From positions 71,858,001 through 71,922,000 of the forward strand of contig OZ287752.1 in assembly GCA_965649765.1 (NCBI GenBank): a stretch of 64,000 nucleotides of DNA, read 5' to 3'. The position numbers were made by a program, and so were the translations under genes. This document shows, piece after piece, positions 6,785-11,258 of the stretch; position 1 is the stretch's first letter; the number at the start of each line of letters is the position of its first letter. The notes under the pieces are model-generated. The model was not told where the DNA came from. It ran no database searches and saw only the letters and a list, made by a program, of their open reading frames with translations. Source of the stretch: Bispira polyomma. Its lineage: Eukaryota.

Positions 6785-7751
6785 TTATTGTAGAATATGT
6801 TGAAGTGAGGTAGCTACAGTCGCTGCAGCATTTGGTGTTGAATTTAGATAAGCCCAGACGGCTTGAGAACGCCAACCCCCATGAACCATAATGGATTGGA
6901 GGTTGACATTATTTTCAAAGGCAAACGTGGCACCAGAGCGACGGAAAGCGTGAAATGTGATGGCTTGTGGGTTCAAGCCTAATGTTGATATAATTTGACG
7001 TAAGACCTTTCTCACTTTGTATTGAGTGATAGGTACAAGTGGATGTTTGTTTTCAGTGAACAAAGGGGAAGAAGGTTTGGGCTTATTTAAGTGCAACATT
7101 ACAAGAAGGGCAGTAACCGGACATAAAGGTGAATTTTTTATGAAAGGTAACTGCACCACATGGAACTGATTATAGCGTTGCAGGTTTTTTGCCCATCGCA
7201 AGATGATATGAACTCCTGGGTGACCCCATACAAGGTCACTTACTGTCAGGTGTCTGACAGGGTCAAATGTGGACATGGATGAAGGTACAAGGTTAGAAAT
7301 ACGAAAGAAACCGAAAAACGCTGTAAGGAAAATAGCTTGATACACGTGTGCATTATGATATTTTTCACATTGATTGATAATGTCTTTTAGTATGGGAATG
7401 GAGATAATGGATTTTAAACGAGGGTTATAAGGGGTTGAAAGAGTTATTGATTTCATGAACAAGTTAATCTGAGGGTGGTTAAATGGGAGAGTGGAAATAT
7501 TCCATAATTTAAGTAAAACTTTATAGCTGAAATGTAATTTTGAATAGAAGGAGGCTTAAGTCCTTGCTGAGTTAAGTATTCCAAAAACACTAAGATGTAT
7601 TTTGTAGTTGTATAATCCTGCACTGGTAATGCTATTGCCAGGGCTAAATATAACCTAATACATTGTAAATAAGATTGAGAAGTCTTTTCTGTGCAGGCAT
7701 GGGGAAGTCTTGTTAAAGCAGCTGAATGCAGGAGGTTTTCTGGAAGAGAAC
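6785..7751 (-). pseudogene. Tyrosine recombinase with a 1-nt frameshift near 7515
   Basis: Catalytic residues present: R (FFRISNL), K (WAKN), HxxR (HAFRR), H/W (HGGW), Y (VWAYL). The N-terminal part (SLPENLLHSAALTRL...VFLEYLTQQGLKPPSIQNYISAIK) is in another frame at 7751-7515 and has no ATG. Confidence 0.92.
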
Positions 7752-7770
7752 CTGGAAATGTGAAACTATA

Positions 7771-9990
7771 TTAAATGCTGTAATTCAATGTGAAATCCTG
7801 TTGAGTGACAGGCCACCAAGTTTTTCCTTTTAATTCGGCTGAAACTTTCGGTTTTATGGGCAAAGGAGAAAACATTCAAGACAAACATTCAGCAATTATA
7901 TTATTTTCACCGGGTACATGTGATAATAGGAATTTTATATTGTGTATGGCTATCTGTAACCATATAGCTCTAGCAATCAATTTCAGTGATTTATCTTTAA
8001 TTTTCCCCGAATTGAGAGTTTGAATAACTGCTAAGTTGTCACAATGAATGTTTAGCACCGTGTTTTTACAAAGGTGTTCCCACTTTCTTAATGCAACTAA
8101 GACATTCCACATTTCATAGTGAACAATACTAAAGTTAATTGGTTTGTTTTCAGGATAAGTGGAGGCATATACATTGTTATTATACACAGCCCCTACACCA
8201 GTGACGGAAGCGTCCACAAACATTTCATTGTTAGGGGTGTCCTTTGTGTGCATTTCTACAATACCATTGAAGTATTGTAAAAACACGTGAAACCAATTAA
8301 GGTCCCTTTTAAAGTAATCATTCAATGTGATGTTCACACTTGGGTAGGAGTCTCTTAGTAATGCCAACATTCTGTTTAAAAACAACCGGGCTGGTTTGAC
8401 ACATCGGTGTATGTACAGCAATTTTCCTAATAGGGATTGAAGTTGCTGTCTAGTACAAACAGAACGGCCTTGCCACTGATTACACATGTCACAAATATCA
8501 GTCATTTTCTGTTGGGGGATTTTCAATATTCCCGTGCGTGCATTTACTATAATGCCCATACAAGTAATTGACTCAGCTGGTTTTTCTACTTTATTAGGAT
8601 TTATTGGAAGACCTAACTTTTGAATAAGGTCATATAACGTGTCAAATGATTGTTTTGATTTTTCTGGGGTATCAGCCGCAAATACATCGTCGATGTAGTT
8701 GTAAATTTGATAGTCTTTAGTATTCATGAGCCTATGTAATGAATCAGTGACCTTTTCACATAATGCCATGCCGTGCTTGTACCCCATCATTACAGAGAGG
8801 TCAATGTAGGTGTGATTTTTCCAATTAAGGGCAGCATAATTATAATCTCCTGGGTCAATACGGAGGTTCCTAAATGCCCTAGATAAATCGATTTTATATA
8901 ATAGGCAATTAGGACCCAGTTTATTGATTTTGTCAACCAACATGTCTATATTTGGGAGGGTGAGACGAAACTCGTGGTCGTCATATACTCCGTTCAATAC
9001 TGCATTGTTGACAGAAGAATTATTGTGAGGCCAAGACAAATCAACTATGATTCTTCGGGTGTTATCACTTTTTGGTCGAGTCATAACTGGAGAGAAATGT
9101 AATTTATCAAATGGGTCATTTAAAAAAGGACCAGCTATGGCTTTGTGCAAATGTTCTGTTATGAAATATTCATCTACACTTTGTGGATGCTGTAAAGCTG
9201 AGTCATGATTTTTTGTTATAGTATTAAACACGAAACCCTGTTTTTGTATACACAAAGGAAACCCAAATTCTAAATACTCTGGGAGTAATATGTCAGGGTC
9301 ACCTTGCAACAAATTCCTCCATTGAGGAATATTTAACTCTGAGGGCACTGGCAACCGAGCTCCTAAGTAATTGGGGCAGCCATATTGATTAACCCTGGCA
9401 TTTGAGAGAATGGCCCATTGTTCCAAAGTTGTATACTTAAGGTCATTGGTATGGTTTGGAATACTATAAACTGGTTTATATAAACACATAAACCCAAAAT
9501 TGTCATTTGTATTTACAAACGTTTGTTTGTCATGGGTTGTTTGCATTACTGCAGACATGTCATTCTTGATTTATTTTGAAGGGGGGTTTCCCAAAGTTTT
9601 GACTGAATGAACAGCAGTAGAGTTTTGAACCAAATGCGACTTTGGAGAAATTTGTACTACAGCAATATTCCCCTTTTTTGGAGGGGAAGACGAGATTTGC
9701 TGAATAGTATGACAAACTTTTTGAACACAGGCATTTTGACATTTTGACGCTTTGTTTACTGGATTTGAATCAATTGTAAGGGTAGTGGTGGGTGGGATTT
9801 TTTTTTCTAATTTTTTGACATCCCCTTGTTTACCTTTTTTAACCCCTAAAAACCTGACTTCAGAATTGAGTTTTTTATTCTTGTTTAAATTTTTCGTTTC
9901 AGTATATGCCTCCAGCCAAGCTGTGTTCTAAAAAGTTTTTGACTTAATAATTAAACTTTTGGAGCTGCCTGGTGGCCTTTCCCGTTTTCC
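7771..9990 (-). pseudogene. pol: pol: reverse transcriptase + RNase H
   Basis: ORF 7876-9558 has RIIVDLS, KIDLSRAFR, YIDD and RNase H FVDAS/HYE/HCDN. The same frame runs from ~9996 to TAA 7773-7771 with three internal stops: TAG 9930-9928, TAA 9573-9571, and TGA 7878-7876 where LSR (CGA) is expected. Confidence 0.93.
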
Positions 9991-11258
9991 AGACCCTTAC
10001 AATTTATTTCCCTATGAGCACTGAATTTCTTTGTTGATGTAAAACATTTTGAACAACCGTGTTTTAAAGTCATACCCGCAAAAGTGTGGTCACCTGTTTG
10101 GGTGCAAGTACCTTTGTTGTTAGCGGTACAAGGAACAATTTTGCCTTTATTTTTTGAAGCAGTGGGGGCTGAATCACGACCACTTTCTTTTATGGTTCTT
10201 TGGGTGAGACGAGCCCTAATTTCATGCACGGCTTTTAAATCTTTCCAATCAACTTTACCTTTTTCCATTTCCAAAAGTAATACGCAGTGGGCACTTTTTG
10301 CCGTATACCAGGAAGTCTCCATGGCATCTCTCATTAATTGTACCCCATACTGCATCATGTTGTCTTTAATAATATTTTCCGGCTCTTCGATCATGCACTG
10401 CAAGAATCCCTGAAACCACATGAGTGGAGTCAGTTCTTCATAAGCAGGATATTTTCGACTCGAATTCACATCACAGTGCTCATGGGGCCATTTAATATGT
10501 TTTTTAATAGTATATTCACCAGTACGTTGCAACCCTGACTTTAACTTCTTACCTTATTCCTCAGGTGAGGAAGCCAGCCTGTTTTTGTGACGTTGAAGGC
10601 GCGCGTCGACTTGACGTTGTATATAGTCGCTCGTGCGTAGATATTGCTGGCTAGGTAATAAGTAATCCTCAGAGTCCCTATGATCATATAGTCCGGCATC
10701 AGCACGTCTGTCGTCTTCCCGTCGTCCTCTCTCAGCGGCAGCAGCTCGGGATCTTCTGGTCGAAACAGGCAGGCCCTCTCGGCGATCAGAATCGATATCA
10801 TCCATCAGGCGTTCCCAATCCTTGTCAGCCATCGGGGCTTCATCGCCCTCAGAACTCTCAGGATGATACCCTGCCCGGGTAGGCGAGCTTTGTGAGGCCC
10901 TGCTGCTCCTGTCAGGCACATAACCGGCTCTCTCAGGAGACGGACGTCTGGGGTAACGCCTAGTGTCTGGAAAAGTGACATTCTTGGTCCTATGGTCCCT
11001 CTGTACTTCAATGACACGTTCTTCTAGACTCTGGAGCTTACTGATAATAAAATCAAACTTATTGGAGTCACCTTGAGAGACTCGAGGGGAAGTATCCGAA
11101 ACTACCTCCGCTTCTGTGTATTCAGCTCGCTTGCGAGGTCGTCCTCTAACACCTGGTGGAGTGGAGGGAGCACTTAAGTCAGGAATATCCCGTGTACAGT
11201 TTTTCCCAACAGGTCGAGTGTGGTGTATTCCACATTTCCGACAGTAGGCCGTGGCCAT
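9951..11258 (-). pseudogene. gag: gag-like ORF1, one reading frame with a premature TAA at 10556-10554
   Basis: ORFs 10554-11276 and 9951-10532 are in the same frame (SSPEE*GKKLKSGLQRTGEY). ATG at 11258 in AAAATGG context; N-terminal CxxCxxxH..C; IKWPHE motif; C-terminal Cys/His cluster CTANNKGTC...HGCSKC...HREINC. Confidence 0.85.

Follow-up and report, generated by a model that had tools for sequence, protein, structure and literature searches.

Introduction

Ngaro-like retrotransposons carry gag, reverse transcriptase (RT)/RNase H and a tyrosine recombinase (YR) in this order on one strand and, unlike DIRS1-like and PAT-like elements, have no methyltransferase after RNase H (PMC9210276; PMC4157794). 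In the published view their YR lies in the -1 frame, overlapping the end of pol, and programmed frameshifting is its probable route of translation (Poulter and Butler 2015, as quoted in PMC13003380); in the literature surveyed, this route to the recombinase is assumed rather than demonstrated. Here we describe an element, likely a decayed Ngaro-like YR retrotransposon of the order DIRS judging by its sequence, in a stretch of 64,000 nucleotides from contig OZ287752.1 of Bispira polyomma (the whole stretch is called the window below, and positions are counted from its first letter). It shares the gene order of Ngaro-like elements and likewise has no methyltransferase, but among its relatives YR is often cut off from pol by a closed spacer, and it opens at a conserved splice acceptor. 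Comparison with these relatives indicates that the clade of the window element likely makes its YR by a phase-1 splice, from a donor in mid-gag to an acceptor just past the pol stop.

The closest working analogy is the SD' RNA of murine leukaemia virus (MLV), in which a gag-internal donor is joined to a downstream acceptor and the N-terminal part of Gag is fused in frame to integrase sequence (P50/P60; PMC10496198). Of its DDE integrase, P50 contains no more than the 116 C-terminal residues, and its role is accessory (PMC10496198), whereas the fusion proposed here would take in the entire recombinase, with splicing as the main expression route; the likeness is analogy, not kinship. Plant Ty1/Copia EVD with its shGAG RNA (PMC5580714) and retroviral env splicing (PMC10496198) are similar in that host splicing balances the products while genomic RNA is kept unspliced. 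However, Copia splicing yields Gag alone and env splicing the envelope, and neither yields an integration enzyme. DIRS1 ORF1 was also co-opted for exons of LAP2alpha, and in the authors' reading a splice acceptor came along with the colonising DIRS1-derived sequence (PMC4495291), but that case concerns DIRS1-like ORF1 in host genes and not YR expression.

No gag-to-YR splice was found in the literature searched; subscription papers, including Goodwin and Poulter 2004, and Repbase reports lie beyond its coverage and might mention one. None is described in the accessible parts of the accounts of DIRS-1 (PMC7192593), of fungal (PMC3783388), Xenopus (PMC9210276), kinetoplastid (PMC6681497), nematode (PMC4157794), Cafeteria (PMC8547959) and zebrafish (bioRxiv 2021.04.08.439009) elements, of ALOG elements (PMC3537659) or of methyltransferase-bearing elements (bioRxiv 2026.05.21.726589).

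Splice signals in the window element

The open reading frames (ORFs) of the element lie on the minus strand in the order gag (ATG 11258, stop 9953-9951), pol (TAA 7773-7771) and YR (to 6785). An earlier note on this DNA had described a YR frame that has no ATG and opens just past the pol stop in the same frame, and this is what the window contains. The donor and acceptor are also where that note placed them, both in phase 1, and they enclose 2801 nt (2.8 kb in the note). The donor, AAG/GTAAGA (a slash marks the splice point), has its first intron base at 10552, and with 706 coding nt of exon 1 counted from the gag ATG it is in phase 1. The acceptor, TTTCACATTTCCAG/GT (TTCCAG/GT), has its last intron base at 7752 and is in phase 1 of the YR frame. 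The features of the predicted splice are:

10553..11258, minus strand: N-terminal part of gag and predicted common first exon, with 234 codons from ATG 11258 before a premature stop
10554..10556, minus strand: premature TAA abutting the donor, by which this copy loses Gag as well as the fusion; the linker is open in the five intact relatives
10547..10555, minus strand: splice donor AAG/GTAAGA, phase 1, best-scoring of 66 GT sites in the window gag
7752..10552, minus strand: predicted intron of 2801 nt, spanning the C-terminal part of gag and all of pol, as judged from the conserved donor and acceptor
7751..7776, minus strand: CAG/G acceptor in phase 1, behind a pyrimidine tract and a branch-like TTAAT that overlaps the pol stop, conserved in 9/9 relatives
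7739..7750, minus strand: another acceptor in the same frame, 12 nt 3' of the first, with its last intron base at 7740
6785..7751, minus strand: tyrosine recombinase, predicted exon 2, with a SAM-like N-domain and a catalytic domain (Pfam; R, K, H-x-x-R, H/W, Y)

The joint of 7751 with 10553 is absent among 15 listed of 39 joints; the three runs, all from one study, cover the element and its flank like genomic DNA, so they are uninformative either way.

The acceptor is conserved among relatives

A metagenome scan yielded 24 related loci, 12 close and 12 distant. Pol of the close loci is 37-41% identical to that of the window, and their mutual identity is mostly 40-55%, with a few pairs reaching 83%. 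The acceptor was counted in the nine close loci with both a pol end and a YR start (leaving out L005, L006 and L011, which have no YR start), and the donor in the six with mid-gag (leaving out L001, L005 and L009-L012). A search of viral contigs for further loci found none.

Within a fixed 36-nt stretch, 60-95 nt 5' of the first conserved YR helix, the most pyrimidine-rich YAG is in phase 1 in all nine relatives. It lies 71-83 nt 5' of that helix, behind a tract of 10-13 pyrimidines per 16. As a control, the same rule was satisfied by 270 of 1823 windows inside YR bodies; counting seven independent lineages at this rate, the joint chance is about 2e-6. The distance from the pol stop to the acceptor varies from 6 to 334 nt, and YR is in frame 0 or -1 relative to pol. 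In five of the nine (L001, L003, L008, L009 and L012) the gap, of 54-334 nt, is closed by in-frame stops, so that YR is out of reach there, both for read-through and for a frameshift where pol ends. Five of the nine relatives, and the window, have no in-frame Met 5' of the first conserved helix.

The footprint of a translated phase-1 acceptor was seen in 15 of 18 further YR proteins, compared with 126 of 636 background windows. This set derives from the best 150 of 5084 YR matches, of which 65 are near full length; 18 of these 65 reach 29-120 residues 5' of the anchor and were scored, without the two long gene models.

In the pol-YR spacers of two relatives (L001:2398-2540 and L009:2527-2680) we observed a conserved block with codon-like substitutions, flanked by an extra acceptor-like AG and a donor-like site (G/GTAAGT in L009). 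It has no Rfam match, and its sequence makes a small extra exon possible.

The donor lies in a linker of gag

A phase-1 G/GTAA occurs in the same gag linker in all six relatives with mid-gag (five intact gags, and the decayed L006 at the matching place). This linker is the variable stretch between a conserved helix, Q-x2-V/T-x2-R-L/I, and a KSG motif. From background rates, ignoring the protein, the joint chance for the five intact gags is 9e-6. The donor Gly codon is GGT in 6/6 (GGT makes up 37% of 614 Gly codons; p 0.002), and five other conserved Gly columns of gag have mixed codons. The spliced frame is open from the gag ATG to the YR stop in L003, L004 and L008, with 137-187 plus 320-324 codons, or about 458-511 residues.

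In a structure model of the L008 Gag (mean pLDDT 61, six sequences) the donor falls at residue 138, after a helix at 117-135, where it opens a low-confidence linker ahead of a well-predicted helical domain. According to this model the splice would cut gag at a domain boundary. A fold search with the gag model gave no match (best Z 4.4).

The earlier note had read the signals as a splice that yields a gag-N/YR protein, and had asked whether donor, acceptor and phase are conserved in relatives. The comparison is mostly in favour of this reading, with acceptor and phase kept in 9/9 and the phase-1 G/GTAA donor in 6/6.

Observations that weigh against splicing

Several observations count against this reading, and the donor evidence is weaker than the acceptor evidence. 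With the linker protein held fixed, the joint chance of the donor is only 0.008, and the donor window was drawn after inspection of the data. The donors of the relatives are weak and have no G at +5; by splice-site score they rank first among gag GT sites in L002, L004 and L008, second in L003, third in L006 and below sixth in L007.

On the YR side, an in-frame ATG before YR, which the earlier note had named as evidence that would refute splicing, is present and could start a full YR in four of the nine relatives (L003, L004, L007 and L010), at non-matching places; it is absent from the other five. A -1 overlap of pol and YR, compatible with frameshifting, occurs in three of the nine (L002, L004 and L007). 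The acceptor footprint is missing in 3 of the 18 further YR proteins. In the distant clade L014-L020 (24-27% pol identity) YR overlaps the pol end in 7/7; a phase-1 CAG lies 80 nt before the anchor in 7/7, but within pol codons, and a pyrimidine tract of 10/16 or more occurs in only 1/7. This clade thus keeps the textbook overlap with weak tracts, and the splicing claim is therefore limited to the clade of the window element.

The window copy cannot itself make the Gag-N/YR fusion, given its premature stop and a frameshift in YR. Finally, among annotated proteins, the N-terminus of a 540-aa amphioxus RefSeq model with a late YR (XP_078660129.1, see below) does not match the gag profile built here, and another gene model, XP_077999222.1, joins pol to YR. 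Neither model is decisive.

Other routes to the recombinase

The YR acceptor could be real and yet joined to another 5' donor, an earlier gag site or a short leader exon, which would give a shorter or different N-terminus. In its favour, the acceptor is far better supported than the donor; it survives best among the alternatives, but we hold it to be unlikely. A phase-1 site at window position 11041, TCA/GTAAGC, could serve, and GTAAG is found at the matching S-K-L codon in the window and L002, but by the same pattern it is missing from L003, L004, L007 and L008. The extra acceptor and donor-like pair in the pol-YR spacers of L001 and L009 would also suit such a route. Only the mid-gag donor is present in all six relatives.

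On the assumption published for Ngaro elements (Poulter and Butler 2015, as quoted in PMC13003380), YR would be made as part of a Gag-Pol-YR polyprotein, with ribosomes shifting frame or reading through the stop where pol ends. This route agrees with the window and L010, where YR is in frame behind the pol stop, with the -1 overlaps of three relatives and with the overlaps of the distant loci. However, the closed gaps in five of the nine relatives bar this route, the pol-YR frames vary among relatives, and the pol stops are TAA or TAG in 11/11, whereas the gag stop with pol in frame behind it is TGA in 6/6. Read-through of the pol TAA, which the earlier note had kept as an alternative, fits the window and just one of the nine relatives (L010). 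None of the 120 listed pol homologues carries a YR domain, so the continuous pol-YR ORF that would have spoken for this route did not appear among them. The polyprotein also leaves the conserved acceptor unexplained, and we judge it improbable for this clade.

A third route would be a short transcript of YR's own, from an internal promoter near the pol end, or re-initiation at an AUG or near-cognate codon, with the T-rich tract as promoter or spacer. The in-frame ATGs 5' of the first helix in four of the nine relatives (in L010 directly after the AG) could be used in this way, and certain spacers would have room for a promoter and show partial conservation. Yet these ATGs stand at non-matching places and are missing in the other five relatives and the window, spacers go down to 6 nt, and a promoter would not account for an AG that always stands in the same phase; we consider this route very improbable.

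That the motifs are unused by-products of AT-rich sequence and Gly-Lys/Asn codons has almost no probability in our view: G/GTRA is mostly in phase 1 anyway (51/63 in these ORFs), since GGT encodes Gly, and single windows pass the donor test at 0.02-0.19, but the joint controls for acceptor and donor speak against chance, and five of the nine relatives would be left without a way to translate YR.

Proposed expression mode

The phase-1 splice from mid-gag to YR is based, in the DNA, on the donor, the acceptor, their phases, the open spliced frame in intact relatives and the want of any other common route into YR. Its predicted product is a Gag-N/recombinase fusion of about 460-560 residues. Unspliced RNA would be both the genome and the message from which Gag and, through recoding where gag ends, Gag-Pol are translated, and a spliced fraction of the RNA would give Gag-N/YR. 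Weak donors may keep this fraction low, which would suit an element needing mostly unspliced RNA. More speculatively, the N-terminal Cys/His finger and long helix common to Gag and the fusion could let the recombinase co-assemble with Gag and so reach the cDNA; the Cys/His motif is present in 7/7 gags (the window and six relatives).

We extend this more tentatively, and at slightly less than an even chance, to a broad animal Ngaro-like clade with a three-way plan. Unspliced RNA would give Gag, Gag-Pol would arise by recoding where gag ends (through UGA read-through in 6/6 relatives and possibly through -1 frameshifting in the window's family), and the mid-gag splice would give Gag-N/recombinase as the sole form of the integration enzyme, loaded into the particle by the Gag N-terminus. 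The two homologues with organism names come from amphioxus and a hemichordate. In the amphioxus model XP_078660129.1 YR stands behind a 200-residue N-terminus that is not RT; we regard it as a lead only.

Searches for such fusions among known proteins gave little. None of 2482 candidates matched as gag-N fused within a longer protein, and one of 957 matched as YR within a longer protein, which was not a gag fusion. The ESM Atlas held no usable match for gag-N or for the N-terminus of XP_078660129.1, and cluster look-ups for 20 proteins returned two named RefSeq models and three entries called 'hypothetical protein', without adding another long YR member. One candidate fusion, P0140, was rejected; in it the YR catalytic domain follows a portion of RNase H, apparently as the result of an internal deletion.

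If the proposal is true, YR ORFs now labelled truncated or startless are second exons, and the real protein, needed for biochemistry, is the Gag-N fusion. This would be a retroelement whose entire integration enzyme depends on host splicing, and the proportion of genome RNA to integrase would be governed by the control of splicing.

gag and pol

Further features of gag and pol are:

11196..11243, minus strand: N-terminal C-x2-C-x3-H-x2-P-x-G-x2-C motif, putative zinc finger, in the window and 6/6 relatives with a gag start
9951..10553, minus strand: C-terminal part of gag, with KSG and WPHE motifs, a helical domain and Cys/His fingers (alignment; L008 orthologue model)
9984..9990, minus strand: G GAA AAC heptamer near the gag end, candidate gag-pol frameshift site; pol is in the -1 frame to gag
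7771..9927, minus strand: pol, with a variable N-terminal extension, RT at about 8967-8548 and RNase H at about 8226-7882; interrupted by stops at 9573-9571 and 7878-7876; family-type end at TAA 7773-7771

The first of these agrees with the N-terminal zinc finger of the earlier note. In the six relatives with a gag end, the gag stop is TGA (L002:1317, L003:1562, L004:3007, L005:313, L007:2924 and L008:1122) and pol continues in the same frame for hundreds of codons; this sequence arrangement suggests UGA read-through for Gag-Pol. The window family is unlike these relatives in that gag ends in TAA and pol is in the -1 frame. A possible stem begins 6 nt 3' of the heptamer, but the fold (window 9905-9992) is not significant (z -1.28).

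Altogether 565 pol homologues were matched. Among the 120 listed, 103 end 42-47 residues past the last RNase H motif, like the window pol; 13 have no RNase H motif, 3 are shorter and 1 is longer.

Decay and copy number

The copy is broken by TAA 10556-10554, by TAG 9930-9928 and TAA 9573-9571 in the frame upstream of pol, by a premature TGA 7878-7876 in pol and by a one-base frameshift in YR near 7511. The first of these is the premature TAA that the earlier note had seen before the donor, and exon 1 accordingly holds 234 residues and a stop (about 235 aa in the note); the other breaks and the second acceptor at 7740 are additions to that account. The bulk of aligned contigs differ from the window copy at 9929, 9572 and 7510 (a one-base indel at the YR frameshift), so these three breaks are private to the window copy. 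The breaks at 10556-10554 and 7878-7876 are not among the 40 differences listed, beyond which there are 1247 more.

Aligned contig depth over window 6200-11704 is roughly 15-100x that of the flank at 11826-12000, and this excess indicates a multi-copy family. The 3' end of the element reaches beyond 6200.

Assignment of the element

The order DIRS is marked by RT/RNase H together with a tyrosine recombinase instead of a DDE integrase, and in the window element this pairing is evident from Pfam matches (RVT_1, E 4e-13; RT_RNaseH, E 9e-5; Phage_int_SAM_4, E 8e-5; Phage_integrase, E 7e-7) and from invariant catalytic residues. A gag-like ORF1 with Cys/His motifs lies 5' of pol and has 23-28% identity with ORF1 of five relatives; it matches no Pfam family and is named gag from its position. 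Pol ends at 7771 and leaves no room for a methyltransferase after RNase H, such as DIRS1-like and PAT-like elements have, so a Ngaro-like assignment fits better.

Other Ngaro traits are not seen in this copy. The -1 overlap of YR and pol, a descriptive rather than strictly defining trait, is replaced by a YR in the same frame without overlap. No repeat of the split direct type (A1-ORFs-B1-A2-B2) joins both ends of this decayed copy within window 3000-14000, and no inverted terminal repeats of the DIRS1-like kind, which go with an internal complementary region, join its ends, its 3' end being unmapped. In a tree, the window and its close relatives form one clade (support 100/99), with labelled Ngaro references not among the sequences. 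Because of the missing split repeats and the tree's composition, Ngaro membership is likely rather than complete.

The contigs of L003, L004 and L007 are self-closing or carry repeats of 197-713 nt. Circular or tandem forms would look like this, but it may also be an assembly artefact. L004 has a 710-nt repeat in three copies, and L003 and L007 have overlapping contig ends; these are not confidently readable as A/B repeats.

Flanking regions

Rfam gave nothing above chance in window 4500-12500 or in six relatives. The 5' side of the element holds:

11259..11704, minus strand: 5' non-coding region, outer end approximate; contig depth falls to flank level and loose contig ends lie at 11704
near 11557-11551, minus strand: TATA-like motif in the 5' non-coding region

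Also 5' of gag, within window 11389-11612 on the minus strand, is a strong acceptor-like site (CTAAT, pyrimidines, CAG/G) with its last base at 11589, which opens in phase 1 into about 66 open codons. On the other side, 3' of the element, lie two unrelated degenerate tandem arrays, at window 2173-2700 and 3463-3920, with units of about 42 nt and 110-145 nt.

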